Assembly (NCBI GenBank): GCA_038231795.1 | Contig: JBBRKR010000004.1 | Span: 68,651 to 132,650 of the forward strand | From: Acidimicrobiales bacterium | Lineage (GTDB): Bacteria; Actinomycetota; Acidimicrobiia; Acidimicrobiales; JBBRKR01 | Length of the DNA stretch: 64,000 nt | Direction: 5' to 3' | In this document: piece after piece, positions 6,124-64,000 of the stretch | How the letters are laid out: every line of letters begins with the position of its first letter | How positions within the stretch are numbered: the stretch's first letter is position 1 | The notes under the pieces: model-generated | Told to the model about the DNA's origin: nothing | The model's database searches: none | Seen by the model: only the letters and a program-made list of their open reading frames with translations | Made by a program: the position numbers and the translations under genes

Positions 6124-6124
6124 C

Positions 6125-6874: not shown

Positions 6875-6890
6875 TGCAAACTCCTTGTGG

Positions 6891-48162: not shown

Positions 48163-48234
48163 TCGGTCACCAAGTCAAATCTTGGTCTGGGCCAGTCGGC
48201 CACGTCAGTTGTGCATCGAGGCTACGGTGCAACC

Positions 48235-49194: not shown

Positions 49195-49227
49195 CACTGG
49201 TCACGTGGCCGTGGTAGAACAGTTCCT

Positions 49228-50004
49228 ATGAACCTTCGAGAACTGTGGTCCGACCAGCAACCGACCTTTGGAGCATGGCTCACCGTCGCCTCGCCCGTCA
49301 GCGCCGAAGCAACGGCACGGGTCGGGTTCGACTACGTGTGCGCCGACAACCAACACGGGGCGATGGACTACCAGGCGACGGTCGGCATCGTGCAGGCCGT
49401 GCTGCTCGCAGGATCACGCCCGATTGCCCGGGTCCCGTGGAACGAGCCAGGAGTCATCGGCAAAATGTTCGATGCCGGATGCGAAGGCGTCGTGGTCCCA
49501 ATGGTCAACACAGTCGCCGAAGCCGAGGCCGTGGTGCACGCCAGCCGCTACCCACCACTGGGCGAGCGAAGCTTCGGGCCAGTGATGGCGAGCATGCGCG
49601 TTGCAGACTACTCAGCCACGGCCAACGACCAACTTGCCGTAATCCCGATGATCGAAACTTCGCAGGCAGTGCGCAACATCGACGACATCCTTGCCGTTCC
49701 CGGCATCGACGCCATCTACGTCGGGCCAGCCGATCTCTCACTCAGCCTCGGGTTGCCACCCGGTAACAACGACGACCGGGAAGAGTTCACCGAGGCACTG
49801 CTGACCATCGTCGCAGCATGCCGGCGCGCTGGCGTGGTGCCAGGAATCCACTCCACCGGTGCTCTGGCCGAGCGCCGGCTACAGCAGGGATTTCACATGA
49901 TCACCGTGTGTGGGGACATGCTGGCCATGCGGACGCGCATGGCCGAGGAACTCGCCCAGGCTCGCGGCGCTGAACGCCCCGACGGCACCAAGTCGATCTA
50001 CTGA
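49228..50004 (+). CDS. HpcH/HpaI family aldolase
   Basis: 258-aa ORF with GFDYVCADNQHGAMDY, VPMVNTVAEAE and IETSQAVRNIDDI, typical of HpcH/HpaI. Confidence 0.85.
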   Translation: MNLRELWSDQQPTFGAWLTVASPVSAEATARVGFDYVCADNQHGAMDYQATVGIVQAVLLAGSRPIARVPWNEPGVIGKMFDAGCEGVVVPMVNTVAEAEAVVHASRYPPLGERSFGPVMASMRVADYSATANDQLAVIPMIETSQAVRNIDDILAVPGIDAIYVGPADLSLSLGLPPGNNDDREEFTEALLTIVAACRRAGVVPGIHSTGALAERRLQQGFHMITVCGDMLAMRTRMAEELAQARGAERPDGTKSIY

Positions 50005-50017
50005 CGCTCTGTGGGGT

Positions 50018-50195
50018 GCGACGCAATGAAGGCGGACAATCCTCGTGCTTTGAAAAAGAGACACACACATTGACCGAGCAGGCTCGCAAACAATTCCCTG
50101 AGCCGGTCAAAGGTCGTATTTTTGGCAACGAGAGCGGATCCTTTGGGAGGGCTTACAAACCCTCCCGAACACCTGAAACACTTGTTGAATGTCGG
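50018..50195 (+). repeat. structured repeat family, copy R5 (full length, diverged)
   Basis: Aligns with R3 and R2 over 5' arm GGCGGACAATCCTCGTGCTTTGAAAAAGAGAC, internal hairpin TTGACCG(50070-50076)/CGGTCAA(50104-50110), degenerate palindrome, 3' hairpin GGGAGGG(50145-51)-cttacaaa-CCCTCCC(50160-66), and tail CGAACACCTGAAAC. Lies between convergent genes. Confidence 0.8.
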
Positions 50196-50270
50196 TGCTG
50201 AGAAGTCCATACGCGAGCTACACGTCGGTGGCATTAGCCGGACCGCCGCCCTCCGCTTGCCGCCGACAGA

Positions 50271-50669
50271 TCAGATCTCGGCGATGACGTCGATCTCGAT
50301 CAGGCTCCGTGGATCGAAAAGCGACTGCACGCCGTACATCGTTGTGCTGGCGGTGGGCCAGTTTTCACCGAACACCTCTCCCAGGCCAGCGAACAGGCCC
50401 TCTGCCATCGACGGTTCCCAGCCCACAATGAGAAGGTTCATCCTCACGACATCGTCCCATGTGGCACCACCGGCAGCCAACGCTATTTCGACATTGCGCA
50501 GAGCCTTCGCAGCTTGCGACGCGAGGTCCGACCCAACGACTACACCGTCGGCGCCGACACCGGTCTGCCCAGCGATATACACACGACGAGTGTCAGACGC
50601 AATGACAACGTGCGCGTAGCCCACAGGCTTCACAAGCCCAGCAGGACGGATTATTTTCTCGATGCTCAT
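50271..50669 (-). CDS. RidA family protein (YjgF/endoribonuclease L-PSP fold)
   Basis: MSIEKIIRPAGLVKPVGYAHVVI...VYIAGQTGVGADG. Start set at the ATG at 50669. Confidence 0.8.
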   Translation of the reverse strand: MSIEKIIRPAGLVKPVGYAHVVIASDTRRVYIAGQTGVGADGVVVGSDLASQAAKALRNVEIALAAGGATWDDVVRMNLLIVGWEPSMAEGLFAGLGEVFGENWPTASTTMYGVQSLFDPRSLIEIDVIAEI

Positions 50670-50754
50670 TCCCGCAGTGTAATCACGGGCGTGAAGCGGT
50701 TCGTCGAGTAGCTCGGAGTCTCGCGGGTTGATCCGGGTCTGCGAGGCTACGTAC

Positions 50755-51729
50755 ATGCGCTATCGACGACTGGGCCGGACCGCTCTCCAGGTCAGCGAGC
50801 TGTGCCTCGGCACGATGAACTTCGGGCCCCAGACGCCCGAGGAAGAGTCGTTCGCGATCATGGACCGCGCCGTTGAGCTCGGAATCAACTTCTTCGACAC
50901 CGCGAACCGGTACGGCGGTGACAAGGGTGCCGGTGCCACCGAGTCGATTATCGGACGTTGGTTCGCCCAGGGCGGCGGCCGGCGGAACAAGATCGTCCTG
51001 GCGACGAAGCTATTCGGAGCAATGTCCGAGTGGCCCAATGACGGCCGACTCTCAGCGCGTCACATCCGCATGGCCTGTGAGGAGAGTCTGCGGCGGATGC
51101 AGACCGACCACATCGACCTTTACCAGATGCACCACGTTGATCGGACGGCACCATGGGAAGAGGTCTGGCAGGCGATGGACACCTTGATCCAGCAGGGCAA
51201 GATCACCTATGTCGGAAGCAGCAATTTCGCCGGCTGGCACATCGCTCGAGCCAACGAGGCTGCTGCCCGCCTCCACACGCTCGGACTGGTCAGCGAGCAG
51301 AGCCACTACAACCTCCTCGTCCGGACCGTCGAACTCGAGGTGCTGCCGGCGTGTCGCGAATACGGCGTTGGCGTCATCCCGTGGAGCCCGCTCTCGAGTG
51401 GCCTGCTCGGCGGCGTGCTTGGCGACTCGGACCGCGCTCGACGCCAGTCCCCCCAATCGTTGAAGCGGATCGACAAGCTGCGCCCGCAGCTGGAGCGATG
51501 GGAGATGCTGTGCGCTGACCTCGCTGAGGAGCCCGCAGCTGTGGCGTTGGCTTGGCTTCTCGCCCAAGATGGCGTCACCTGCCCGATCATCGGCCCCCGC
51601 ACCGTTGGCCAGCTCGACGGCGCGTCGCTGCGCTCTTTGGAAGTCACGCTTGATCCCGACACGCTACAAGCGATCGACGCCATCTTCCCCGGCCCCGGCG
51701 GCACTGCGCCCGAAGCGTACGCCTGGTAG
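50755..51729 (+). CDS. aldo/keto reductase
   Basis: MRYRRLGRTALQVSELCLGTMNFG, FFDTANRYG, and IDLYQMHHVD. Confidence 0.9.
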   Translation: MRYRRLGRTALQVSELCLGTMNFGPQTPEEESFAIMDRAVELGINFFDTANRYGGDKGAGATESIIGRWFAQGGGRRNKIVLATKLFGAMSEWPNDGRLSARHIRMACEESLRRMQTDHIDLYQMHHVDRTAPWEEVWQAMDTLIQQGKITYVGSSNFAGWHIARANEAAARLHTLGLVSEQSHYNLLVRTVELEVLPACREYGVGVIPWSPLSSGLLGGVLGDSDRARRQSPQSLKRIDKLRPQLERWEMLCADLAEEPAAVALAWLLAQDGVTCPIIGPRTVGQLDGASLRSLEVTLDPDTLQAIDAIFPGPGGTAPEAYAW

Positions 51730-51830
51730 CCGGTTCAACCGCGGCGAGCATCTGCTTCCCCGATTTCGCAGCGCCCCGGCGACCGTAACTGATGTGGCTA
51801 CCGGCGAGCATGCCGTTTATGGTGACCAGC

Positions 51831-52604
51831 ATGAACAGCCACTATCTTCCGTCGTTCTCCCTCGCGGGTCGGGTGGCTCTTGTCACCGGTGCGAGTCGCG
51901 GTATCGGGCGCGGGTTGGCCGAGGCGTTGGCTGCGGCCGGAGCGACGGTCGCCGTCACGGCCCGTGCGCGTGAAGACGCCCACGCTGTCGCAGATTCCAT
52001 CGTCACGGCGGGCGGTGTCGCCTCATCGCACACCCTCGATGTTCGCGATGTGGGGTCCATTCGGGCAGCGATCGAGGAGGTGGTCGATCGCTTCGGACGG
52101 CTCGACATTCTTGTCGCCAACGCAGGGCTCGGAGCCAACCATGCTGCCACCGACGTTACCGAGAACGACTGGGACGAGATGATGGCGGTCAACTCGAAAG
52201 GTCTGTTCTTCACGGCCCAAGCTGCTGGCAGGGTGATGGTCAACCAGGGGTGGGGCCGCATCATTGCGATTAGCTCCCAGGCTTCGTTAGTCGGCATTCG
52301 CGATCACGTCGTCTACTGCGCGTCGAAGGGTGCGGTGAACCAGATGGTGAGGGTTCTCGCCCTCGAATGGGGCGCGAGCGGAGTGACGGTGAACGCAGTC
52401 GCCCCCACGTTCATCTACACGCCGGGCACCGCCGATCGCCTCGATGACCCTGCGTACAGACGTACAGTCGTCGAACGGATTCCAATGGGCAAGGTCGGTG
52501 AGATTGCCGATGTCGCGGGGGCGGTGGTCTTCCTCGCGTCAGACGCGGCAGCCATGGTCAACGGTGTGATCCTGCCCGTCGACGGAGGTTGGACAGCGCA
52601 GTAG
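51831..52604 (+). CDS. SDR family oxidoreductase
   Basis: ALVTGASRGIGRG cofactor motif, NAG, and YCASKGAV catalytic motif. Confidence 0.85.
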   Translation: MNSHYLPSFSLAGRVALVTGASRGIGRGLAEALAAAGATVAVTARAREDAHAVADSIVTAGGVASSHTLDVRDVGSIRAAIEEVVDRFGRLDILVANAGLGANHAATDVTENDWDEMMAVNSKGLFFTAQAAGRVMVNQGWGRIIAISSQASLVGIRDHVVYCASKGAVNQMVRVLALEWGASGVTVNAVAPTFIYTPGTADRLDDPAYRRTVVERIPMGKVGEIADVAGAVVFLASDAAAMVNGVILPVDGGWTAQ

Positions 52605-52614
52605 ATCCCCACCC

Positions 52615-52660
52615 TCGGTTTTGATCGGGAAGGGTTACCGCACACCTGGAACAACTCGGG
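52615..52660 (+). repeat. possible short degenerate fragment of the repeat family (3' tail only)
   Basis: CCGCACACCTGGAACAACTCGG resembles the tails of R3 (CCGAACACCTAAACAAACTGG) and R5 (CCGAACACCTGAAACACTTG). The match is short and could be chance. Confidence 0.3.
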
Positions 52661-53177
52661 ATCCCGCTTCGAGCAAACGAGCTCAAAATAGCCGTTCACG
52701 ACGTTGTCGAAGTATTACGTCGGTATGACACATGGCAGTCCCCCGGCTGCCCTAGCAGGCGCCTTCAGCGTCGCCGACTCGGCCCCCGATAGCCGTCCCA
52801 TGTCCTTGGACCGGCGATCTGGGAAGAGAATGATGTCGATCTCGGCCCGGTTCCGCGCTCACGCAAGCGTCGATAGGTCCGCTCATTCCCGCACGATCCG
52901 ATCGCTCCGGACCATCTCTTGACAATCCGAAAACGTCGTTCGAGTCGCTAGCACAGCCAGGTACGGGGTCTCGTTCGGTCTGCTGGCGGTCGGCGTGGCG
53001 GGATAGTGGTGATCCGTGTAAATGTCAGGCAGGATGCGTTCGCGCGATGATGCTTCCCGCCCTCGTGCCACTACGTACAGCTTCACCGCCGGCAACTGGA
53101 TCGTCTACGACTTCGACTGGGCCAACGCCAACTGATGCCAGGATTGCCCGTCGTACTTCAGCCCCTAATGCCAATCC

Positions 53178-53661
53178 CTACCTTGACGCCAGCCGACCTT
53201 CGCTGCTAGCCGCGAAGTAGCAGGGGTACATGGCGGCTAGTTGGTCGGTGCCGCAATATTTGCACTTCGTCGCTGCTGGCACCAGGTCGTTGGACAAGCA
53301 TGCCGGACACGTCTTGACCGGGGCTGGCGAGCCGAACACAGTGACGCCTCGCTTCGCCGAGATTGCCTTGTACGGGATCACGATGGCGAAATACAACACG
53401 GCCACGAACACGATGAAGTAGATGACCGCAGAAATAAACGAGCCGAAATCCAAGAAGGTCTTGGCGTTGCCAGCGTCGCCTAGTTGTACGCCAAGCCCTG
53501 CCGCACTTTTACCCTGAACACGGTTCAGCAATGGATTGATCATGAAATCTGTGAAACGCCTTGATCAGCGTGCTGACTGCTAGCGCAACCATCAAGCCGA
53601 TCGCGATGACAATGACGTCACCGCGCAACAGAAAGTTCTTGAAACCCTTGATGATCGAATT
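53178..53661 (-). pseudogene. mscL: large-conductance mechanosensitive channel MscL with C-terminal zinc-ribbon-like tail; frameshifted and lacking a canonical start
   Basis: Upper ORF ...SIIKGFKNFLLRGDVIVIAIGLMVALAVSTLIKAF and lower ORF MINPLLNRVQG...FISAVIYFIVFVAVLYFAIVIPY...CPACLSNDLVPAATKCKYCGTD together make an MscL. The frames differ. Removing one base near 53553 restores KAFTDFMINPLLNR. The first codon is AAT/ATC where ATG is expected, after a GGGAGA Shine-Dalgarno sequence. Confidence 0.7.
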
Positions 53662-53899
53662 TCTCCCTACTGTGAGGTACTCGGGAATACGCACCTCAGC
53701 AGTACCCCAACTACACATCAACCTGGCTGTGGGGATGGAGCTTGGTGGGGCTTCGAACTTATTCAAGGTCTTCTTCATCGCCAAAAGAACGGGCATGAGC
53801 GACACCATGACCGGGTGGTTTGCCGCGTCGGCCTCCTGACCGGGCAAGGGGCCAACTTCCAACTTCCCACCTGACACAAACACCCGTCCCAGCATCCGC

Positions 53900-54025
53900 C
53901 CAGTTGCTGAGCAACTCGACGGCCAGAATTTCCACTGAGCAGATCAAACGTTGCAAATTTGGCAACGATCAGTGGACCTTATGGAACAGCTTTCAAACCC
54001 CACTCGCCGACCAGTACAACATCGC
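53900..54025 (+). repeat. structured repeat family, copy R1 (lacks the 5' arm)
   Basis: Hairpin AGTTGC-tga-GCAACT (53902-53916), CACTGAGCAGATCAA, palindrome GTTGCAAATTTGGCAAC (53950-53966), then GATCAGTGGACCTTATGGAACAGCTTTCAAACCCCACTCGCCGACCAGTACAACATCGC. Confidence 0.85.
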
Positions 54026-54050
54026 AGATGGCTTCAAACGAGGAACCGCT

Positions 54051-54455
54051 CGTCCGTCAATGAGTTTTGAATGCTCCGACACCGTTTGGGAATATTACGT
54101 GTCCGCTGTCGATGGGTTCGTGACGGTCACACCAGAGTACAACTACTCGACGTCCGGAGCGCTCAAAAATGCGCTGGACTACCTGTATCGAGAGTGGAAC
54201 GACAAGGCGGTCGGTTTCGTGTCCTACGGCAGCACTGGTGGAACTTGAGCTGTAGCACACCTCCGCCTCATCGCCGCTGAGCTCAAGCTTGCCGACGTGC
54301 GTGGGCAGGTTGCGTTGACGCTCGGCAGCGACTTCGAGGAGTACCGCACGTTCGTCCCAAACGAACGTGCTCGGCGATCGCCAGACGCCGTGCTCAGCGA
54401 GGTCCTCGCCTGGTCAACCGCACTCGCTGGTCTCCGCACAGCCCAGGAGAAATGA
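54051..54455 (+). pseudogene. NADPH-dependent FMN reductase, 5'-truncated and carrying an in-frame TGA
   Basis: RPSMSFECSDTVWEYYVSAVDGFVTVTPEYNYSTSGALKNALDYLYREWNDKAVGFVSYGSTGGT-TGA(54246-54248)-AVAHLRLIAAELKLADVRGQVAL... The Rossmann N-terminus (roughly the first 55 residues in homologues) is missing. The stop sits where homologues have Arg (CGA). Confidence 0.7.
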
Positions 54456-54536
54456 CGCTCGTCCACCTCGACCCGATCGGAAGCGTGTCAGTTCGCAGCC
54501 CCGGCCGGCCTTGGCGCTGCCTGGGAACCAGCAGCG

Positions 54537-54625
54537 TTACATTACGGACAGTTGATCGGTAACGCAGTATTTGCATTTCGTCGCGGCCGGCGCTGGATGG
54601 GGTGCAGCGAGACACCGAGCCCCAA
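54537..54625 (-). pseudogene. second, 3'-terminal remnant of an mscL-like gene (zinc-ribbon tail only)
   Basis: Minus translation FGVGARCLAAPHPAPAATKCKYCVTDQLSVM-stop parallels FGSPAPVKTCPACLSNDLVPAATKCKYCGTDQLAAM of the gene at 53178. Nucleotide similarity is visible (AGTTGATCGGTAACGCAGTATTTGCATTTCGTCGC versus AGTTGGTCGGTGCCGCAATATTTGCACTTCGTCGC). Confidence 0.55.
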
Positions 54626-54637
54626 CCCCGAATTATG

Positions 54638-54814
54638 CGCGAACGTAGACGAGAATGGACTGCTCCTTTGGGTTTGAAACAAGCGACGAACGTTATGTGG
54701 CGATCGAACACGCGCCACATACTCTGAACAGGTAAAACGTTGCAAATTTGGCAACAACTGGTGGGCCTTTTGGGACGACGTTCAAACCCCACTCCCCGAC
54801 CGGTCCAACGTCGG
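54638..54814 (+). repeat. structured repeat family, copy R2 (full length)
   Basis: 5' arm CTCCTTTGGGTTTGAAACAAGCGAC, hairpin ATGTGGCG(54695-54702)/CGCCACAT(54713-54720), palindrome GTTGCAAATTTGGCAAC (54739-54755), then AACTGGTGGGCCTTTTGGGACGACGTTCAAACCCCACTCCCCGACCGGTCCAACGTCGG. Confidence 0.85.
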
Positions 54815-54954
54815 ATTCACCGGCCGGACGTCGAGTTCTTAGTTGTTGAGTACAAGGGTGGAAGTGCGAAGCCGGTCGTCGGGACCTCCGATTCACGGAC
54901 GTCGCCCGAGTTACCCATCGTCGATGTAATGCTTGCTATACCGCAACTATTGCT

Positions 54955-55467
54955 ATGGTGCACGACGTGGCGAGAGAAGCGAGAGGCGATCCGATGTCGA
55001 TCGACAAGAACGCCGAGGACGCAGTTGTTTCCCTGGTGCTGACCACATCGAGGGCGTTGGTCGGTGTTGCAGCCCGATCGCTGAGCACACTCGGCGACGA
55101 TGTCACGCTGCCGCAGTATCGGGGCCTCGTTATCTTGGCGGCCCGCGGCCCCCAGGGCGTCGGCGCACTCGCCCAGGCCCTGTCCATCCATCCGTCGAAC
55201 GCAACCCGATTGTGCGATCGGCTTGCCCGCAAGCAGTTGATCGAACGTCACGTCTCGCAGGAGAGTCGCCGGGAAGTCACGGTGGCTGTGACCAGCGCTG
55301 GGAGGCAGCTACTGGCGGCAGTGACGAAACAGCGAGCGTCCGAGATCCGTGCGATCGTGCGCCTCATGCCGGTTGGTCAGTGGCCGCAAGTGGTCGGCGC
55401 TCTCGGTGTCTTTGCGGACGCTGCCGGCGAAGCGCCCGACGATGCGTGGAAGCTGGGTTGGACATGA
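54955..55467 (+). CDS. MarR family transcriptional regulator
   Basis: LPQYRGLVILAARGPQGVGALAQALSIHPSNATRLCDRLARKQLIER is a MarR winged HTH. Its stop overlaps the ClC start (ATGA). Start may be ATG 54994. Confidence 0.85.
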   Translation: MVHDVAREARGDPMSIDKNAEDAVVSLVLTTSRALVGVAARSLSTLGDDVTLPQYRGLVILAARGPQGVGALAQALSIHPSNATRLCDRLARKQLIERHVSQESRREVTVAVTSAGRQLLAAVTKQRASEIRAIVRLMPVGQWPQVVGALGVFADAAGEAPDDAWKLGWT

Positions 55468-56810
55468 ACTCCTCAAACTGGCTGCCTACGCACCGGCGCG
55501 AGGAACTTAGGGCGATAGCCACCCGCTCGCATCAGGTGGTGACCTTCGCGGCCGCGGTCGGCGTCATCACGGGATTGCTGGTCGCAGGGTTCGACCGCCT
55601 CGTCGTCGACGTTTTGATCGATCGGGTGCTGAAACTGTCGCCGTGGCTGATCGCATTCCTCCCCGGCATCGGTCTACTCGTTGCGTTCGCGTCACGTCGG
55701 TTCATAGGTGGTGGGGTTTCGGCATCCACAGCCGATGAGTATCTGCACGCGTTCCATGACAGGGAATATGTACTTGGGTGGCGGCCGTTCGTGGCCCGCA
55801 TGGTCGCGGCCGTCGCAACACTCGGTGCGGGCGGTCCAATGGGTTTGGAAGGCCCATCTATGTACTCCGGCGCCGTTTTCGGTTCCGCGCTGCAACGGCG
55901 TTTCCCGAGAGTTTTTGGGCAAGCAGACCGACGGATTCTGCTGGTCGCCGGCGCAGCGGCAGGAGTGGCGGCAATCTTCAAGGCGCCCGCCACTGGCGCC
56001 GTCTTCGCACTCGAAGTCCCCTACCAGGACGACTTGGCCCGTCGGATGTTGCTCCCCGCTTTGGTCGCCAGCGCGACCGGCTACCTCACGTTCGCCGCAA
56101 TCAACGGCACTACGCCGCTGTTCCACATCGAGAGTACCGCAGGGTTCGTTCTCCGTGACTTGCTCGGCGCGGTCGGGGTTGGATTGATCGCCGGTGTCGG
56201 CGCCCGCGGGTTCTCATGGATGCTCCGCAGGGCCAAGTCCTTGGCCGGCAAACCCCATCCAGTGTTCGGTGCCGTCGCCGCCGGCGTCGGGTTCGCAGGG
56301 ATGTTTGGCCTCGGACGCCTGCTCACCGGGCAGTCGCTGATGGTCGGCGCCGGCTATCAGGTCGTCGCCTGGGCATCGATCCCAGGACGCACAATCTGGC
56401 TGCTACTGGCGGTGCTTGCCCTTCGTTGCCTTGCGACCTCGGTCACCGTCGCAGGCGGCGGAGTCGGTGGTCTATTCATCCCGCTCGTGGTGAGCGGAGC
56501 GCTTACCGGTGCCGTCATCGGTACTGCGATCGACCAGTTCGACCTCAACCTGTTCATAATCGTCGGCGTCGCCGCGTTCCTGGGCGCCGGATACCGGGTC
56601 CCGCTGGCGGCGGTCGTGTTCATCGCCGAAACCACCGGACGACCCACCTTCGTCGTGCCCGGTCTTCTTGCGGCCGTCGCCGCGGAGTTGATGATGGGTA
56701 CCTCCTCGGTCACCAAGTATCAGCGGATCACCACCGTCACACTCTCAAGATCCCCCACGGAGGAGACCGCCAGGCTCGACGACGAACTGGAGAGCGGCCA
56801 CGACTCGTAA
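55464..56810 (+). CDS. voltage-gated chloride channel (ClC) family protein
   Basis: Polytopic membrane protein with GPMGLEGPSMYSG (G-x-E-G-P selectivity motif), GAGYRVPLAAVVFIAE and GGLFIP. Confidence 0.85.
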   Translation: MNSSNWLPTHRREELRAIATRSHQVVTFAAAVGVITGLLVAGFDRLVVDVLIDRVLKLSPWLIAFLPGIGLLVAFASRRFIGGGVSASTADEYLHAFHDREYVLGWRPFVARMVAAVATLGAGGPMGLEGPSMYSGAVFGSALQRRFPRVFGQADRRILLVAGAAAGVAAIFKAPATGAVFALEVPYQDDLARRMLLPALVASATGYLTFAAINGTTPLFHIESTAGFVLRDLLGAVGVGLIAGVGARGFSWMLRRAKSLAGKPHPVFGAVAAGVGFAGMFGLGRLLTGQSLMVGAGYQVVAWASIPGRTIWLLLAVLALRCLATSVTVAGGGVGGLFIPLVVSGALTGAVIGTAIDQFDLNLFIIVGVAAFLGAGYRVPLAAVVFIAETTGRPTFVVPGLLAAVAAELMMGTSSVTKYQRITTVTLSRSPTEETARLDDELESGHDS

Positions 56811-56929
56811 GGCGCCACACAGACGAGCACGGACCTTCCACCGATCGATCCGACCAACCCGGTGGGGCGATTCACGCACCGACAACCCGATGCAGACCGC
56901 CAGCGGATCCTTAACTCGTTGGCGGTCGG

Positions 56930-56985
56930 ACAACATAGGCATTGGCTAGGTCGGGTCTGCACTTAAAACACCTGCCAGGTGGGTT
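56930..56985 (+). repeat. possible internally deleted fragment of the repeat family
   Basis: ACATAGGCATTGGCTAGGTC resembles ACATAGGATCTGAGTAGGTACC of R3. AACACCTGCCAGGTGGGTTG resembles the R3 tail AACACCT...GGTAGGTGGGGG. Weak. Confidence 0.3.
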
Positions 56986-57034
56986 GATGCGGCGGTCGCT
57001 CGTGACCCCAAGCGCCGTTCGCATCGGTCTGGAC

Positions 57035-57117
57035 CCGTGCCAAGGACCGCCAGCCTGTTCACCCCGGAGGAAACGGGACAGCTTTCAAAACCCGCTCTCC
57101 GAACAGCGCAACGCTGG
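57035..57117 (+). repeat. structured repeat family, copy R6 (3' half)
   Basis: CGGAGGAAACGGGACAGCTTTCAAAACCCGCTCTCCGAACAGCGCAACGCTGG. Nested pairing CGGAG(57065-69)..CGGG(57074-77)/CCCG(57091-94)..CTCCG(57097-101). Confidence 0.7.
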
Positions 57118-57518
57118 CATCGCCCGTCGGCATCCCCGACCACACTGCCGCTGCCCACCTACAGCACCACGGGATAGCCCGACGTCCCTCGACCCGCGCA
57201 AGATGATCGACGTGGAGGTAGATGCACTCCCCACGACAATGCTCGGCAGTACAGATTGCGCTGCGCTCGTGGCGCAATGTTGCGACAACGCTCGCGGGGT
57301 ATGGGTCTGTGAGCACCGCATCACCATCACGGACGCAGCCGGCACCATCATCGAGAGCGATGAAGAGACTGGGGCAGCGGATGCGGGCATCTCAGTCCGC
57401 ACAGGAGGCACGGTTCGATATCGGTCGAATCCATCGCCGGGTTCTGGACGTTCGCGATCGTCCGTCGGAGGCTCTGGTGTCTTCGAATTGGGGGATTAGC
57501 GAGACTAGCGTCGCTGGC

Positions 57519-58199
57519 ATGAGCGAAATCGATCACGCCGCGATACACCGAGGTGTACGTGTCCGCATCACAGCTCTCGTGTGCGAGCTTTCGGAGGAGA
57601 TGCTTGATTTCGTTGCGCCCGCAACCCCGGAGTGGCGGGTTCGCGATGTTGTGGCCCACCTCGCGGGTGGCGCGGCTGACGTTGTATCCGGCAACCTCGC
57701 CGATGTGGCGAGCGATTCCTGGACCGGCGCTCAGGTAGATGCCCGGAGGAACCTGACGGTCGGCGAGGTACTCGATGAGTGGGCACGTTGCAGTGCGATC
57801 GTCGAGCCGCTCATCGCGACGTTCGACCCGCTTCTGCGCGCCATGCTGCTGACAGACGCGGTTACGCACGAGCATGATCTGCGCGGTGCGCTCGGGGTTG
57901 CAGGTGAGCGCGAATCCGATGCGATTGCGTACGCATTCCGCGGTGTTTCCGGTGGTATCGGAGCGCAACGCGGCGATACAGGCGCGCTGCGCATCCTGCA
58001 CGAGGCTGGCGAGTCGGTCGTCGGAACCGGCGCACCGACGGCCACGGTGCACACGACGCGTTTCGAGATCGTTCGGGCGAGCGTCGGTCGCCGCTCCTAC
58101 GAGCAGATCAAGGCGTGGGATTGGGAGGGCAATAGTCAACCAGAAACCGTGGTGCTCGCACGGTTCGCTCCCGCGCGGCTCACCCCGCTCGAGGAGTAG
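57519..58199 (+). CDS. maleylpyruvate isomerase family mycothiol-dependent enzyme (DinB/MDMPI fold)
   Basis: Start at ATG 57519. EWRVRDVVAHLAGG and DAVTHEHDLRGALG are typical of the TIGR03083-type family. Confidence 0.7.
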   Translation: MSEIDHAAIHRGVRVRITALVCELSEEMLDFVAPATPEWRVRDVVAHLAGGAADVVSGNLADVASDSWTGAQVDARRNLTVGEVLDEWARCSAIVEPLIATFDPLLRAMLLTDAVTHEHDLRGALGVAGERESDAIAYAFRGVSGGIGAQRGDTGALRILHEAGESVVGTGAPTATVHTTRFEIVRASVGRRSYEQIKAWDWEGNSQPETVVLARFAPARLTPLEE

Positions 58200-58223
58200 A
58201 TCCATCCCCGGATCGAGCACCGT

Positions 58224-58900
58224 TCATGACGTCCCACTCAGCGAGTTTGCAGGCCCGACTTCGCATAGACCAGCACGCAGAGCCGGCGTTATACGAGTGG
58301 TCTGTGCCTTTGAAACGCGCCGGGCGGGTACATCGACGGCGCCGACCCCCTGAACCCCGAATCGAGCGAGAGACGCAGTGAGGAAGCGACTCGGTCGGCG
58401 ATCTGCGCAAGCCCGATCGAGTCGAGACGGAACTGTTGCGTTGTCGGATTGCGTCAGCCGCCGGAGTCGGTATGTGGTGTCGATGTCGAATTCGTAGTGA
58501 TTGCGGCGAATGTTCTGGATCAATTCTTGGCCCCTGACGACGGTGCTCGCGGTGCCGTGGCGTGTCAACCTGCGCGTCATTCGGAGTATTGTGACACGCG
58601 TCCAGTACCAGCTCGTCAATCGCTCTCACCAAACCCGCTGGCCGGTCGGTGACCACCTCACTCGGTTGGCCACGCAAACGCCGGTGGCCAATGCTGGTCG
58701 ATCGCCACCGTGGAGGAGACCAATGCAAGAGCACCGAGGACGAAAGGGAAGGGACGAACCACAAGCCGGTGCGCAACGAATCGCGAAGCCGAGCCACTCC
58801 CACGCTTCCCCGTTCGCAAGTTGAGGTTCGGTCGCATTCCACACCGCAACTATCAACCATCCATAGCGCACCCAGAAGAGGCACTTCGGCACCGGACTCG
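58224..58900 (-). pseudogene. probable decayed membrane-protein gene (coding signal scattered over three minus-strand frames)
   Basis: Overlapping minus ORFs carry TM-like pieces (LRTGLWFVPSL / PFVLGALALVSSTVAIDQHW / LFWVRYGWLIVAVW). No single frame stays open. Family unknown. Confidence 0.25.
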
Positions 58901-58960
58901 ACCGTGCCGGCGGAGTAGCGTTTCGTCCAGAGGGTTGTCCTCACGAAACGGAGTAACGAC

Positions 58961-59572
58961 ATGACTAGTTTCCGCCAACTGCACACCGGCGCCATGGCCG
59001 TCGCGAGCGACGGCGACGTCGGGTCGGTCGTGGCGCTCGTAGTCGATCCAACCACTCGGACCGTGACCCACCTCCTCGTAAAGAACGCGAACGTCCCCGC
59101 AAGCAGCCGGGTCGTCCCCGTAGAATACATACGATCAACCGAGCACGAGCGCGTCCTGCTCGACCTCACACGGGCGGAAGTGCTCGACGAGCAGCGATTT
59201 ATTCAACCCGAGTGGATCCCTGTCGAGCCCTACCCGAAGGGCTTCATGAGCTACTGGCTACAGGGCGGCCAGTCGTTCGCGGTTAGCGAGCACCTGCCAA
59301 GCCAGGGCGACCTCGCTCTCCGCAAGGGGGTCGAGGTCCGTTCGAGCGACGGCCACCACCTCGGAACGGTCGACGAGATCCTCGTCGACGACACCGGCTC
59401 TATCAAGCAGTTCGCCCTCCGCGAAGGACACCTCTTCGGCCACCGTACCGTCATCGTCCCGATCGATCAGGTGCAAGCGATGAACGAGCATTTCATCCAG
59501 CTCGGCATCGACCGCTCAACTGCCGAGCAACTGGCCAGCGAGAACCTGGGCGGGCCTGCTACCAGCCGTTAG
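58961..59572 (+). CDS. PRC-barrel domain protein (two PRC barrels)
   Basis: 203-aa ORF with VASDGDVGSVVALVVDPTTRTVTHLLV and SSDGHHLGTVDEILVDDTGSIKQFAL, two PRC-barrel-like units. Confidence 0.75.
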   Translation: MTSFRQLHTGAMAVASDGDVGSVVALVVDPTTRTVTHLLVKNANVPASSRVVPVEYIRSTEHERVLLDLTRAEVLDEQRFIQPEWIPVEPYPKGFMSYWLQGGQSFAVSEHLPSQGDLALRKGVEVRSSDGHHLGTVDEILVDDTGSIKQFALREGHLFGHRTVIVPIDQVQAMNEHFIQLGIDRSTAEQLASENLGGPATSR

Positions 59573-59888
59573 TGAACATTTGGTGCCACCACAAAGACCG
59601 GTCGATCAGTAAACTCGAGGAGGTGTTCGGTCTGGCTCCCGACGTGGCGGCTCCCCAGCCGTCGGCCATCCGGGCGACCTATGATGATCAAATCCGCGCA
59701 CTCTGTACGGCATTGGCCAGGACGGTCCTACCGAATACAAGTACACACCCGCGCCCTGGTTGGCGGGATCGACGTGAACGCGATCGACCGATTGGACCTG
59801 CCATCACTGTGTCACATAACGCCGGATCGGGCGCTCGTGCCACGCTGTCGAGGACGGCCGGCGGCGGAACTCCGAGGGCGCAGCGTTC

Positions 59889-60433
59889 CTAGGCTCGTGT
59901 GACCGGCAGTACCGTCGGGCCACGGATCGATAGCGATCGCTTCCATTCTGTCGTTGCCGGATCGAGCTGGTAGTCGCCGAACGCTTCCAGGAATGCGGGG
60001 ATTGCGACCCGGAGCTCGAGGCGGGCGAGTGAAGCGCCCAGGCAGTGGTGAATACCATGACCGAACGACAGCGGCTTAGGGTCGGGGCGGTCGAGTCGGA
60101 GCTTGTCGGCGTCGGGCCAGCGTCGGACAGTTGAGAATAGGGCCGGACGTCCATCAAAACGTTCACCGCCGAACTGACCGACAACTCCGGCGAACGGAGC
60201 AGTTCGAGCGCCTCGTCGTACCCGACCACGAACCACCGGCGAAACACCTTGTGGTAATAAACCTGGCCGTACTTTTGGCGCACCGCCTCGAGCGATCGAT
60301 ACGGATCGACGTAGTAGTCCGGGTCGAACGGACTCTCATCGTGCGTCAGCCGGAACAGCGCATGCGCAAGCCGAGGCCGTTTGGCCAAAAGTCGAACAGC
60401 AGGAATGGCGATCTGTTCGATGCGCATCGTCAA
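59889..60433 (-). pseudogene. cytochrome P450 with a large internal deletion and frame change
   Basis: N-terminal part PFDPDYYVDPYRSLEAVRQKYGQVYYHKVFRRWFVVGYDEALELL (frame of 59804..60433). C-terminal part WPDADKLRLDRPDPKPLSFGHGIHHCLGASLARLE (frame of 59889..60236). Together they span about 545 bp, where the intact P450 at 43692 needs 1248 bp. Confidence 0.75.
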
Positions 60434-60869
60434 CTGACTCCCTGCGTCTCAGCGTCGCCTCGGCGGCGGCGTCCTAGCCCTACCAACGGCAGACGATCAG
60501 CCAGGTCGGCCTTAGCTCTTCCTCCGCGATTGCGGTGTTGCCTCGAATGGTCAGCTGGGCTCATATCGGGACGTCAGCCGTATCGCGATCGATGCGACCA
60601 AGTGGTTGGTGCTGGTGCGTGGCATGCTGACCGGGCTGGCTTCTGCCCGACGGTGTAGGTGGTTGCGTGATGACAACGAGGTCAAGCCGCTGTCCGACGT
60701 CTGATATCACCGCCTCTCGGCTCGCCTCGACTGCGATAGACCTCGCAGAATGAGAAGCATCTGGTAGCGCAGATAGCTCGCCGGAAGCGAGCGCGCATCC
60801 GGCGATCTGCGCCGAGAGGATGCGCTGGGCGGCTGCGGCGCCGGGGCCGGCTCCCCGAACCTGAGACTA

Positions 60870-61050
60870 GGCAGACATCAGTGGCGGAGGACCAATCCTC
60901 AGGGTTTGAAAGAAGCGACAGACAACATCACTACCGGACTCGGGACATAGGATCTGAGTAGGTACCACGTTGTAATTTTGACAACGATCGGTGGACTTTA
61001 CGGGACGGCTTTCAAACCCTTCCGAACACCTAAACAAACTGGTAGGTGGG
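60870..61050 (+). repeat. structured repeat family, copy R3 (full length)
   Basis: 5' arm with AGGGTTTGAAAG (60901-60912), palindrome variant GTTGTAATTTTGACAAC (60969-60985), GATCGGTGGACTTTACGGGACGG, CTTTCAAACCCT (61009-61020), and tail TCCGAACACCTAAACAAACTGGTAGG. Confidence 0.85.
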
Positions 61051-61099
61051 GGTGTCGAACGTCTCGCCGCCCGCCATTCGGGCCTTCGGAATCCATCAC

Positions 61100-61220
61100 G
61101 ATGCCGCACCGCGCCCGCGGCCAACAACACCCGGCAGCTCACCGGAGCGCTGCCACGCAACGACGCGATCTCACGATTCAGCTGCTCGCCAAGAACCCAC
61201 GCGGTGACGAGTTCAGTCAT
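61100..61220 (-). pseudogene. N-terminal fragment resembling a cryptochrome/photolyase-related (COG3046-type) protein
   Basis: ATG at 61220 followed by MTELVTAWVLGEQLNREIASLRGSAPVSCRVLL, the (V/I)LGDQL start typical of that family. The reading frame then runs into repeat R3. Confidence 0.35.
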
Positions 61221-61316
61221 GGGTCGACGTCTTTCTGGCGGCGGGGATTCGACAGGTATAGTAAAGATCGTGTTCGCGACCCACGCCTGCAAAACCAAAC
61301 GTCGGTGACTTGCGGC

Positions 61317-62228
61317 ATGTTGATCCGAGAGCTGCAGGACAAGGTCGTCGCGTCGACGGTGGCGCTGTTCTCGCACGGTCCCCAACCACTCGCCAACACC
61401 CTTGACTTCCGTGGCGATCCTGGACTGCTCGGCCCGGACTCAGTGTCATGGCGAGTCATCGGCGACGCCGCCGCATTCGTTGGCGGCATCCGCGCGCTAC
61501 TCGTTCAGACAGCCCATCCCGAAGTGGTCGCAGGGGTGGAACAGCATTCACGGTACCGATCCGACCCGCTCGGCCGCTTGTCACGAACCTCGGTGTACGT
61601 CACCGAAACCACCTACGGCGCGCTCCCCGAAGTCAACGCGGCGGTCGCCGCCGTCCGGCGAGCTCACGGACCGGTGCATGGTCAATCCGAACGCGACCGG
61701 GCCTATAGCGCCGGGAACCCAGCGATGGCGGCCTGGGTGCACAACGTGCTGACCGATTCTTTCCTCTCGGCGTACCAAACGTTTGGGCCGTGCCCGCTCA
61801 GCGTGAACGAGGCCGACCGGTTCGTCGCCGAGCAGACGCGGATCGGGGCATTGCTCGGCGCTTCGCCGCTCCCATCCACCGCCGACGAGCTCGCTTGTTG
61901 GATCGTCGAGCACCCGGCACTCGCAAGTACCCGCGACCAGTCAGCGGCGGTCGAGTTCCTGCGCAATCCGCCGCTTCCCATCCCGGTGCGAGTCGGCTAC
62001 CGCCTGCTCTTCCAGGCTGCGGTAACAACCATCCCTACCGTCATTCGCAACATCACCGGGTTGACCCCGGCCCGGGGTGCGACCCCGGTCGGGACCGCCG
62101 CCGTTCGCAGCTTGCGATGGGCCCTCGGTTCTTCGCCTTCGTGGCATCTTGCGCTCGTACGGACCGGGGCACCGGTGCCTGCGGGCATGTTCCGTCAACC
62201 ACTGCCCGCCGCTCGAGACATTGAGTAG
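61317..62228 (+). CDS. DUF2236 (MpaB-type oxygenase) family protein
   Basis: Start ATG 61317 (MLIRELQDK). GPDSVSWRVIGDAAAFVGGIRALLVQTAHPEVVAGV is the DUF2236 signature. Confidence 0.8.
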   Translation: MLIRELQDKVVASTVALFSHGPQPLANTLDFRGDPGLLGPDSVSWRVIGDAAAFVGGIRALLVQTAHPEVVAGVEQHSRYRSDPLGRLSRTSVYVTETTYGALPEVNAAVAAVRRAHGPVHGQSERDRAYSAGNPAMAAWVHNVLTDSFLSAYQTFGPCPLSVNEADRFVAEQTRIGALLGASPLPSTADELACWIVEHPALASTRDQSAAVEFLRNPPLPIPVRVGYRLLFQAAVTTIPTVIRNITGLTPARGATPVGTAAVRSLRWALGSSPSWHLALVRTGAPVPAGMFRQPLPAARDIE

Positions 62229-62255
62229 GGTATTTTGACTCGGGAGGTGCAGGCC

Positions 62256-62717
62256 GTGTCACGGGAACCGAAGGCGGTAGCAGAAGGCCAGGACGAGCGG
62301 TTGCAACGAGCGATCGGCATGGCTGTAGAGGTGCGGGCGAGCGCTTACGCCCGCTACTCCGGGTTCGCGATGGGCGCCGCAGTGGTCGGCATCGACGGGC
62401 GCACGACGCGCGGCGTGCTCGTGGAGAACGTGTCCCTCGGTCTGTCTATGTGCGCCGAGCGCGTTGCGATGTTCTCTGCGGTCACCGAGGCGATCGCGCC
62501 TGTGGTGCTCGCCTTGTGCGCGCCGAGAACGGGAGGCCAACTCACGTTTCCTTGCGGGGCGTGCCTGCAGGTCGGTCTCGAGGTCGCCGGCACAGAGCTA
62601 CTGGTCGTTGCTGTCGATCCCGACGGCGCTTATGACTGGGCGCCACTCGTGACGTTGCTGACTCGAGCGCCGAAGCGGCACACCCCGGTCACGGGACCGA
62701 GGGCCCCGACAAAATGA
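62256..62717 (+). CDS. cdd: cytidine deaminase
   Basis: GTG 62256 preceded by GGGAGG. YSGFAMGAAV, zinc ligand motifs CAERVA and PCGACLQ. Confidence 0.75.
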   Translation: MSREPKAVAEGQDERLQRAIGMAVEVRASAYARYSGFAMGAAVVGIDGRTTRGVLVENVSLGLSMCAERVAMFSAVTEAIAPVVLALCAPRTGGQLTFPCGACLQVGLEVAGTELLVVAVDPDGAYDWAPLVTLLTRAPKRHTPVTGPRAPTK

Positions 62718-62924
62718 TCGGTCGCCGGGCAACCGGCTACGCTCCACGACCAGGAGCGCCCTTCCTCGAAGCGCGGCGGTTGCGGCAAGGTGCAGCGCGT
62801 CGTCGGAGGGCGAGGGGCTCAAGAAGCAACCGATCCACCGCGAGTTCGGTCTCGGCAGCTTCGATAGCGACCATGTCCGATGGGCGCCCACCTACCCATC
62901 TTGCCGCGACATCCCGGCGATACG

Positions 62925-62965
62925 ACACGGACCCTTCGTATCTTTCGAACCCTGCCTCCGAATAG
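62925..62965 (+). repeat. structured repeat family, fragment R7 (3' hairpin region), abutting R4
   Basis: CACGGACCCTTCGTATCTTTCGAACCCTGCCTCCGAA parallels GGTGGACTTTACGGGACGGCTTTCAAACCCTTCCGAA of R3. Confidence 0.6.
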
Positions 62966-63060
62966 GTCAAATAGGCCGATCTCGTTTTGATTTCTACGAC
63001 ACCGAGTGGACCTTATGGGACGGCTCTCACGCCCCATTCCCCGACATGTGCAACGTCGCC
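62962..63060 (+). repeat. structured repeat family, copy R4 (degenerate palindrome plus 3' half)
   Basis: ATAGGTCAAATAGGCCGATCTCGTTTTGATTTCTACGACACCGAGTGGACCTTATGGGACGGCTCTCACGCCCCATTCCCCGACATGTGCAACGTCGCC. Confidence 0.8.
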
Positions 63061-63329
63061 TCGGCTGCGCTGAGATCGACACCATTATCAGCAATTATCA
63101 ATCCGGGCGCTCGTCCCGCGCGATCGCCAAACTCATAGGCGTCCACCGATCGCGAAAGCGCTCCAATCACGGGCATAAGCGCAGATATGGGTACGTAGGC
63201 CGAGAGACCGATGGCGCAGATCTGTGGGAGGGTGTTCTGCACGGAAACCCGACGCCACTTTCTCCCGGGGCGCATAGCCGGGTCTGTTTAAGGCAGCTGG
63301 CTCAATCGCAGCACATGGGTGTCCAGTGA
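63006..63329 (+). pseudogene. ORF that initiates inside repeat R4 and contains an HTH-like segment (transposase/resolvase-type); probably a remnant
   Basis: VDLMGRLSRPIPRHVQRRLGCAEIDTIISNYQSGRSSRAIAKLIGVHRS. The pattern x-I-x2-Y-x-S-G-x-S-x-RAIAK-x2-GV-x-RS is typical of HTH_7/IS-type N-terminal HTH domains. The rest is Arg/His-rich junk, and its 3' end overlaps the convergent SDR gene. Confidence 0.3.
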
Positions 63330-64000
63330 GACGACCTCGTCAGCCCGTGCGGCGAGTTCGTGCCAGTCGTCGACCGCTGCCCTGATGTAGCGGCCCGAGA
63401 GGGCGTCCAACATCCCAGAGTCGATATCCGTGATCAGATCCAAGGACTTGTCGACCGGCGTCCATGTGTCCGCGTCGTCCCACACGTGGGCGAAGGCGGC
63501 CGCGGTCATGTCGGTCTTCACCATTCCAGGAGAAATCGCGAAAACCCGGACCCCAGCACTGTGACATTCACCGGCAACCGCTTCGGTAAAGCGGTTCACC
63601 GCGGCTTTGCTCGCCATGTAGGCAGAGGTGAGAAGCCCGTCGTTGTCGAGTCCCACCGGAAAGGTTGCCGCACCGGAGGAAAGGTTGATGATCCTGCCGC
63701 TGCCTCGCGCCATCATCGGCGCAAGCACTGCTCGGGTGCACAAGTAGGTGCCCCGCACGTTGATTTCGAACACCTGCCACCAATCCGACTCCGTCAGCTC
63801 CCAAGTCTTGCCGCTGCCCCCTGACACGGCCGCGTTGTTCACCAGCAGATCCGGCACACCCAACTCGTCCATAATATGCCCGAATACTGCCTCGACGGCG
63901 ACGGGATCGGCGACGTCCAGGACGAATGGAACGGCACCGGATCGACCCGCGACCTCGTTGAGATCGGTCTCCGAGCGCCCGATCGCCGCCACCGTCAGGC
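63288..64000 (-). CDS. SDR family oxidoreductase (5' end beyond the right edge of the window)
   Basis: LVNNAAV, NLSSGAA and YMASKAAVNRF catalytic motif. The Rossmann N-terminus is not within the window. Confidence 0.8.
   Translation of the reverse strand, partial: LTVAAIGRSETDLNEVAGRSGAVPFVLDVADPVAVEAVFGHIMDELGVPDLLVNNAAVSGGSGKTWELTESDWWQVFEINVRGTYLCTRAVLAPMMARGSGRIINLSSGAATFPVGLDNDGLLTSAYMASKAAVNRFTEAVAGECHSAGVRVFAISPGMVKTDMTAAAFAHVWDDADTWTPVDKSLDLITDIDSGMLDALSGRYIRAAVDDWHELAARADEVVSLDTHVLRLSQLP

Follow-up and report, generated by a model that had tools for sequence, protein, structure and literature searches.

Same-orientation repeats in an Acidimicrobiales genome are probably worn junctions of a cassette array whose relatives are anchored on tRNA-Val

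Chromosomal integrons hold many short cassettes that are poor in promoters and unrelated in function, toxin-antitoxin and defence genes being common among them; these cassettes lie in one orientation between similar recombination-site repeats and do not themselves encode the recombinase. Tandem arrays also form at small-RNA genes: the ssrA genomic islands of Dehalococcoides are bounded by repeats of the ssrA 3' end, insert at the T-loop and have an open reading frame (ORF) across attL (PMC3146451), and the general principle of islands in tRNA genes (tDNA) has been set out for Islander-type islands (PMC4383910). The tycheposons of Prochlorococcus are anchored on tRNA genes and carry their own tyrosine recombinase and replication genes (bioRxiv 10.1101/2020.12.28.424599), and cis-mobilizable elements (CIMEs), which are flanked by attachment (att) sites, lack integrase and transfer genes and accrete in tandem at one attB, are regarded as decayed integrative and conjugative or integrative and mobilizable elements (PMC5704250). 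Here we analyzed a 64,000-nt stretch of an Acidimicrobiales bacterium (assembly GCA_038231795.1, contig JBBRKR010000004.1, positions 68,651 to 132,650; hereafter the window), whose last 14 kb hold a family of repeats on one strand. In our assessment these repeats are probably not structured RNAs but the worn junctions of a chain of small imported gene cassettes, at a hotspot of gene capture.

A preliminary description of this DNA had reported a same-orientation repeat family that is absent before 50 kb, and the family was recovered by direct-repeat search, by alignment and by independent profile hidden Markov models (HMMs). Two HMMs built solely from genomes other than that of the window gave six nhmmer matches in it (50047-50262, 53925-54000, 54669-54789, 57041-57101, 60897-61076 and 62916-63029), all on the + strand and with E values from 1e-6 to 1e-22 in DNA of ~59% GC, and no match in positions 1-50 kb, even at E<=10. 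Every window copy also matches, by tblastn, one family of helix-turn-helix (HTH) proteins, and each is truncated or frameshifted; the window thus holds at least seven pseudogene remnants of one HTH gene family, interleaved with unrelated genes. The uniform orientation on which the preliminary description had remarked is meaningful, and its suggestion of a shared leader module was borne out, in that the repeats include the common leader and 5' module of this gene family.

The repeat unit has up to three parts: a junction module of ~110 nt, a core GTGGACCTTATG-GGACGGCTTTCAAACCC, and the 5' coding part of a tandem HTH gene of ~163 amino acids (aa). The module runs from an upstream TTCAAACCC box, inverted or direct, through CTGAnCAGG to a palindrome GTTGY-N7-RCAAC; upstream of box A, the box in the core, most loci have, in this order, a third box, CTGACCAGG(G), the palindrome as (C)GTTGT-N7-ACAAC(G), a spacer of 3-6 nt and GTGGACCTTATG. 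Type-1 modules carry the third box in direct orientation (CTTTCAAACCC) and type-2 modules carry it inverted (GGGTTTGAAAGAAGCGAC...GAGCGATCGGACACG), the latter modules being found in window copies R2, R3 and R5 and in loci L003, L006, L028, L040, L070, L071 and L079 (related loci elsewhere carry L numbers). Within the core, ATG-GGACGGCTTTCAAACCC is a start codon followed by codons for GRLSNP, and this box, encoding MGRLSNP, recurs exactly 141 nt downstream as box B. The long form, seen in L006 and L003, consists of a 5' arm, the palindrome and a box with tail CCCTCCCGAAC, separated by ~115 nt from a second box (tail CCCACCCCGAC..CAACGCC), after which comes the HTH ORF; it is longer than the window copies, of which R1, R2 and R4 are short forms with boxes A and B fused. 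Two subfamilies had been distinguished by their tails, and both exist; the tails go back to one ancestral unit, in which CCCTCCCGAAC is the tail of box A and CCCCAC.CC.GAC...CAACG that of box B. An intact cassette reads, from left to right, as core, the rest of the HTH gene (its start codon lying inside the core), variable cargo, and a right-end module of ~110 nt, in which the third box, in either orientation, is followed by CTGACCAGG and the palindrome GTTGT-N7-ACAAC. The outer 5 bp of the palindrome are kept and its centre varies, for which a protein-binding site is a better fit than a hairpin. Directly before the upstream box of type-1 modules (L034, 11154-11168; L002, ~2830-2860) lie a small TTCG-loop hairpin and a T-rich run (ACACCTTCGGGTTCTTTTTC), which look like the terminator of the preceding cargo. 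We hold this descriptive account of the units, as distinct from any mechanism, with high confidence.

The copies in the window, all on the + strand, show this anatomy at different stages of decay. R5 (50047..50262; nhmmer E=5e-20) has a type-2 module with an inverted box GCTTTGAAAAAGAGA at 50047-61, CTGAGCCGGT at 50098-107 and the palindrome at 50113-29, followed by a degenerate core, box A at 50146-62 and a decayed box A-B linker, and aligns to P0040 by tblastn as 'NPPEHLKHLL'. A weak fragment noted earlier near 52615-52660 proved to be part of an HTH body (52634..52726) with the end of HTH1 and the start of HTH2 and no 5' module (tblastn to P0012 residues 118-148, E=0.006). R1 (53925..54025; nhmmer E=4.5e-14) keeps a partial module (CTGAGCAGAT at 53935-44, palindrome at 53950-66), the core GTGGACCTTATG, a fused box at 53984-54000 and the box-B tail; its gene is cut off after 'RRPVQHR' and the tblastn alignment reads 'QLSNPTRRPVQHR'. 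R2 (54657..54862; nhmmer E=8e-20) consists of a full type-2 module (inverted box 54669-86, CTGAACAGGT 54724-33, palindrome 54739-55), the core, a fused box at 54773-89 and about 30 decayed HTH codons, which tblastn aligns as 'GRRSNPTPRPVQRRIHRPDVEFLVVEYKGG' (E=3e-7). R6 (56930..57197; nhmmer E=9e-7) is a remnant of the long form without a module, comprising linker, box B at 57076-92 and HTH fragments with an internal deletion, and matches P0001 and P0040 by tblastn across 57001-57197; the second weak fragment, 56930-56985, which lies outside every profile match, is by eye a remnant of its box A-B linker. R3 (60889..61120; nhmmer E=2.5e-22, and tblastn) has a full type-2 module (inverted box from 60901, CTGAGTAGGT 60954-63, palindrome 60969-85), the core, an exact box A at 61003-19 (0 mismatches) and a decayed linker. 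The stretches earlier called R7 and R4 form a single unit (62916..63329; nhmmer with the type-1 HMM E=8e-15) rather than two copies: a decayed type-1 module with a direct box CTTTCGAACCC at 62942-52 and a palindrome remnant at 62984-63000, then the core GTGGACCTTATG, a fused box at 63018-34 and an HTH pseudogene with a frameshift (63018-63203 matches P0040 by tblastn, E=1.5e-17). By blastn this last unit matches a junction in L034 (11157-11259), upstream of the second HTH gene of that locus.

A gapped pattern derived from the repeats recovered five loci from GTDB genomes, all in Acidimicrobiales or Acidimicrobiaceae metagenome-assembled genomes (MAGs) from soil. Metagenomes scanned with two kinds of degenerate peptide pattern, one for a helix and the other for MGRLSNPPE whatever its codons, so that codon choice was unselected, gave 80 loci, and protein searches define a family of stand-alone proteins of ~163 aa that start with MGRLSNPPE, repeat G(R/Q)LSNP 47 residues later, contain two HTH domains and end in the motif IRPRRGW. 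Box A is nearly always one identical 17-mer, each occurrence lying on the gene strand, and box B follows box A at a distance of 141 nt in 51 of 58 cases. Across 44 distinct genes with a median amino-acid identity of 43%, the box A codons GGA CGG CTT TCA AAC are each a single codon and the equivalent box B codons vary in at most 3 of the 44, while other invariant residues use three to six synonymous codons; these genes were picked by their match to the boxes (at most 2 mismatches in box A and at most 3 in box B), which makes the codon count circular taken alone; it leans on the peptide-pattern retrieval, where codons were not preselected. The 9-mer TTCAAACCC, of which 2.8 copies are expected per strand, has 212 copies on the strand of the gene and 11 on the opposite strand. 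The boxes are constrained as DNA, not as protein: over about 90 related loci the nucleotides of the box are fixed, although the proteins share ~43% identity.

AlphaFold models predict that residues 1-60, which span both boxes and the linker, are disordered and are followed by two three-helix HTH domains, with a recognition helix H-R-x-T-V-x-x-H-L that is invariant in the family. The best structural matches are the CRISPR-repeat binder Cbp1, the DNA-binding domains of the Tc3, Mos1 and SETMAR transposases, and the Pax paired domain; for Cbp1, Tc3 and Mos1 the likeness is weak in sequence and in fold (E 1e-3 to 1e-2, TM ~0.3-0.4). The family shares with Cbp1 and the bipartite HTH of Tc3/Mos1 (PDB 2lvs, 1u78) its tandem three-helix HTH, which in those proteins reads repeats of ~20 bp (CRISPR repeats or transposon ends), but has no catalytic domain, and its binding to the boxes is putative. 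Identification as IS630 or as IS3 OrfA was considered and rejected, as the homologs stand alone at ~163 aa without a DDE domain and Pfam and NCBIfam give generic HTH matches only. Viral contigs gave no match to a 20-mer and three to a 17-mer that were judged to be chance, no HTH gene following the box. A sister subfamily (L096, L099, L103, L104 and L105; for example L105 at 6121 and 8451) starts with (V/M)GRYSNPD, encoded GGACG-YTAYTCSAACCC, which comes nearer to a genuine tRNA T-loop; it shows synonymous variation, and no second box was seen in the loci inspected. It keeps TTCGAACCC, which is an authentic tRNA T-loop sequence.

The link to tRNA comes from the junctions of related loci. ARAGORN found nine tRNAs in 60 loci. 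Each is a tRNA-Val (anticodons GAC, TAC or CAC) that lies downstream of the HTH gene on the minus strand, and in all nine the module is joined at GTGG to the tRNA-Val 3' end. At L007 and L034 the module there has no HTH gene behind it and abuts instead, at GTGG, the 3' end of the opposite-strand tRNA; L034 as a whole reads flank, a first HTH gene, a module with a second HTH gene, and a module with tRNA-Val (13905-14049). Reverse-complemented tRNA-Val 3' ends (GTGG, acceptor, GGGAC, TC[G/A]AACC, CCCGA) align with the core, which differs from them by 5 nt inserted in the T-loop and in its acceptor part, and from this alignment the core appears to mimic the acceptor/T-arm end of tRNA-Val on the opposite strand. 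L074 is a short-form allele of the L007 locus whose left junction is flank, GTGGGCACGACGGGAC and the rest of the box, GTGGGCACGACGGGAC being a true 16-nt end of tRNA-Val(GAC); partial tRNA-Val fragments also occur at L025:2048 and in window R2. Six independent locus pairs (L017/L026, L069/L082, L029/L035, L037/L039, L055/L064 and L042/L044) are 90-99% identical through the gene and lose identity 0-3 nt left of GTGG, in some cases with the upstream module in one partner and unrelated sequence in the other; as in tDNA-anchored island arrays, precise endpoints are common to independent insertions. L007/L074 and L052/L078 differ by exactly the box-to-box segment, a 141-bp long/short polymorphism.

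The window itself can be placed in this scheme through its right end, where positions 63262-64000 are 95.4% identical (megablast) to L034 12930-13669, ~300 bp before the module and tRNA-Val of that locus, which suggests that the window stops just short of a tRNA-Val gene. GC content rises from ~0.58 to ~0.63 at roughly 48 kb. We infer that 48-64 kb is an array of at least seven cassettes, and a fossil one, since every HTH copy in it is a pseudogene. The explanation that we favour, on balance and as the probable one, is that site-specific recombination built a tandem array, now decayed, of small cassettes without an integrase, such arrays being anchored in related genomes on the tRNA-Val 3' end. 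A trans-acting recombinase would work inside the 16-nt segment GTGG..GGGAC, and each new cassette would enter at the tRNA and displace older ones outward; junctions of one orientation would follow from orientation-specific insertion at a single site. The paired-like HTH protein, with its predicted binding, may read the boxes as an accessory or regulatory factor, and the fixed 141-bp phasing may reflect the architecture of a nucleoprotein complex. The right-end module would give the HTH gene an operator and promoter only in a circle or at a junction between cassettes.

Tyrosine integrase and HTH_17 (excisionase-type) genes abut the core in the L017 group, and this group and a truncated Xer-like gene in L036 are the only array-adjacent recombinases; Pfam found none in the ORFs directly upstream of the HTH gene, none in intra-array ORFs, and none but the L036 gene in the ORFs beyond the tRNA. 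The idea of an integrase beside every cassette was therefore dropped: phmmer with the L017 integrase recovers its own group alone, and Pfam on the neighbours is empty except for L036. The L036 gene (16889-17761, +) is a truncated tyrosine recombinase of Xer/integron type (SAM_4 and Phage_integrase) that lies beyond tRNA-Val (16764-16839, -) and divergent from the array, and the junction there has an extra GTGGGCGCTGA fragment; this integron-like layout was met a single time.

Several observations count against site-specific capture at tRNA-Val as the origin of the window array. There is no integrase in the window, and the 116 neighbour ORFs of related loci contain no recurrent recombinase or transposase (IS110 occurs twice). 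Neither a circle nor an empty site nor an excision product was seen, and a promoter scan of the module predicted no promoter of sigma-70 type. The common core, with its acceptor part ACCTTAT, is not a simple displaced fragment of tRNA-Val. No tRNA lies within the 64-kb window, whose anchor is deduced from homology only, and the leftmost copy, R5, bears a module instead of a flank|core junction. Finally, most of the related sequences are metagenome contigs or MAGs; among loci L027-L106 most are on contigs of 1-5 kb, many starting or ending within ~100 nt of the box, which suggests that the repeat breaks short-read assemblies.

Four other explanations of the repeats can be weighed against these data. 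The preliminary description had pointed to features that look like selected secondary structure, with switch-like, mutually exclusive pairings. Read in this way, the repeats would be a cis-acting structured RNA leader or switch that controls translation of the HTH gene, in which the 5' arm pairs with the box after the start codon or, alternatively, a 3' hairpin forms. The 12-nt long-range inverted repeat, the palindrome and the 3' hairpin on which it drew are all in place, an inverted repeat of 9-12 nt with a T-arm-like hairpin is present in the window and at about ten other loci, and rare A/T-ending codons are fixed at the mRNA start; the hairpins of unrelated sequence 5' of the palindrome, by contrast, are not conserved outside the window. 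Covariation, however, finds no support, an outcome that the preliminary description had itself named as refuting, and that bears here on the RNA reading: the RNAalifold covariation term is positive (+0.63), with a double change in one pair only, and in a pair-count test 237 of 500 shuffles do as well. The long-range helix, which is the type-2 third box paired with box A, is invariant save for breakage in decayed copies, and it cannot form where the upstream box is direct (type 1), as in 11 of the 17 long-form loci that, after de-duplication, have an upstream box that can be recognised. Since the module also adjoins a tRNA, where there is no mRNA to regulate, and since Rfam gave no relevant match for the window at the gathering threshold and none at E<=10, an RNA switch is very unlikely. 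Paralogous autoregulated HTH regulators, whose shared promoter, operator and 5' end would have spread by local duplication and then decayed without site-specific mobility, deserve somewhat more attention and are still unlikely. The product is a DNA-binding HTH protein, the palindrome GTTGT-N7-ACAAC resembles a dimer operator beside a start codon, and homology between loci is often limited to the gene itself; yet regulators of this kind would not be expected to leave a module joined to tRNA-Val with no HTH gene behind it (nine of nine), the same gene with or without a module and with the break exactly at GTGG, box nucleotides that are identical across proteins of ~43% identity, or cargo that is unrelated between copies.

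Homologous recombination, in which incoming DNA would be swapped in with the HTH gene, module and tRNA as homology anchors and no dedicated recombinase, would likewise account for some of the pattern, as a cis-encoded recombinase is lacking, RecA could exchange conserved blocks of this length (500-600 bp), and the modules within one array (L034) are alike. We nevertheless judge it improbable, given that breaks cluster within 3 nt of GTGG in the six locus pairs, that a homology anchor would need far less conservation of the box and of its 141-nt phasing, and that the core appears to mimic a tRNA end as attP sites do. The preliminary description had also listed a hairpin-bearing mobile element, and the repeats are indeed tied to mobile DNA. 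As a miniature inverted-repeat transposable element (MITE) or the end of an insertion sequence (IS) or Tn7-like transposon, with the boxes as transposase-binding sites, the unit can draw on its several boxes of ~17 nt, on the resemblance of its HTH fold to transposase DNA-binding domains and on the fact that Tn7-like elements also home beside tRNA genes. It is extremely unlikely to be one: the core is the coding 5' end of a gene, the two ends of the unit are not inverted copies of each other, the left end has no fixed terminal sequence directly outside GTGG, and the only repeated transposase family among the 116 neighbour ORFs is IS110, with two; no terminal inverted repeats or target-site duplications were noted at copy boundaries, though no formal search was made. 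On anatomical grounds, the attC/integron, repetitive extragenic palindromic (REP) element and MITE readings all fail.

Set beside the described systems, the proposed cassette arrays come closest to tandem tRNA/tmRNA islands, with which they share a chain downstream of one small-RNA gene, same-orientation repeats that appear to mimic its 3' end, insertion at the T-loop/3' end, an ORF across the att site and the decay of old islands in place. Those islands, however, carry an integration module (the DsiB serine integrase or tyrosine integrases), whereas the cassettes here are nearly all without a recombinase, the L017 group and the truncated gene of L036 being the sole instances of an integrase encoded in the island. 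Nor is the repeat here a plain tRNA fragment; it is a diverged apparent mimic, invariant in its nucleotides, which also provides the start of the HTH gene and is duplicated 141 nt downstream. Tycheposons offer a parallel in successive integrations that push older elements inward to the island, in partial tRNAs and degenerate remnants, and in adaptive cargo, but the cassettes here measure 1-6 kb and contain the HTH gene and cargo only. Like CIMEs, the cassettes are att-flanked and have no recombination or transfer genes, and a lead on mobilisation by an adjacent integrase element exists at L017 only, where int and xis lie beside a cassette; unlike CIMEs, the cassettes lack an integrase as a rule in many taxa and come with a conserved gene and junction module of their own, a regularity that suggests a dedicated life style. 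The cassette traits of integron arrays outlined above recur here as well, but intI, attI and Pc are absent, a tRNA gene serves as the anchor, and each cassette has an HTH gene. The RYYYAAC...GTTRRRY arrangement of attC is also missing, the arms GGGTTTGAA/TTCAAACCC standing in the opposite order and the upstream box being direct in most loci. An integron was thus rejected: the logic is integron-like, yet every defining integron feature fails. In the literature searched, the box motif was not found, and for tRNA-Val arrays in Actinobacteria there were analogues only. What is new relative to known tRNA-anchored island arrays is the regular absence of an integrase, an invariant att mimic at the gene start that is duplicated at 141 nt, and a dedicated HTH gene and module across many taxa.

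A more specific proposal, which we regard as possible though doubtful, is an integron-like capture platform of Acidimicrobiia and related Actinomycetota on tRNA-Val. A paired-like HTH 'adaptor', carried by the integrase-less cassettes themselves, would bind three invariant T-arm-mimic boxes, with a fixed phasing at about -81 or -108, +12 and +153 relative to the crossover point, and recruit a trans or host recombinase, and circularisation would join the right-end operator/promoter to the HTH gene. If true, this would be an undescribed system.

Between the remnants, the genes of the window have little in common. The interval from R5 to the next HTH fragment (50271..52604) encodes, by Pfam, a RidA-like protein (-), an aldo/keto reductase (+) and a short-chain dehydrogenase/reductase (SDR; +). 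Around R1, cargo remnants (53178..54280) comprise mscL in two frames (-) and a fragment of an FMN reductase (+). The mscL stretch (53178-53895) consists of two overlapping ORFs in different frames, one matching Pfam MscL profile positions 1-34 and the other 38-97, so that mscL is a frameshifted pseudogene inside the array; the FMN_red match (53820-54280) covers profile positions 67-117 only, the middle of an NADPH-dependent FMN reductase, and is read through from the R1 remnant, which makes it a truncated cargo gene. R2 is followed on the + strand (54955..56810) by a MarR regulator and a ClC chloride channel, R6 (57222..59572, +) by a protein with a weak, sub-threshold match to MDMPI_N (mycothiol maleylpyruvate isomerase N-terminal domain) and a PRC-barrel protein, and R3 (60978..62717, +) by an MpaB/Lcp-type oxygenase and a cytidine deaminase, all as assigned by Pfam. 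The last cargo gene (63262..64000, -) is an SDR and lies in the 740 bp shared with L034. GC content steps from ~0.57-0.59 on the left (1-48000) to ~0.60-0.64 on the right (48000-64000); this step near 48 kb falls ~2 kb left of the first repeat, and the 2-hydroxyacid dehydrogenase and HpcH aldolase genes may therefore also be imported cargo. Apart from this step, GC is also high (0.63) in a patch at 16-20 kb.

Beyond the window, the 116 neighbour ORFs contain 134 Pfam families, so that the cargo is very heterogeneous. Cargo of toxin-antitoxin or defence type is frequent, with Phd/ParE, Phd/YoeB, MNT and HEPN_Swt1 (L007 5744-6294; L025 1401-2044; L026 9579-11847), and L002 adjoins what by eye is a UvrD-like helicase. 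L003 also has, at 5849-7276, an 849-aa ORF with about five tandem 285-bp repeats at 92-98% identity, by eye FN3-like 'PPSSDGGSTVTGYRVTPF' units, which is unrelated to the cassettes.

For the annotation of such genomes, the 'structured repeats' and the N-terminal 'MGRLSNPP' are to be read as DNA-level signals and not as RNA or protein motifs. The invariant 17-nt box is a simple probe for arrays of this kind in metagenomes and explains the contig breaks around it, and it would provide a clean example of an att site turned into the start of a protein-coding gene. To our knowledge, integrons have not been reported in this phylum. If the model of cassette capture holds, widespread soil and freshwater actinobacteria build the variable regions at their tRNA-Val genes from minimal, recombinase-less cassettes with metabolic, resistance, toxin-antitoxin and defence genes as cargo, and these arrays would fill an integron-like role there.

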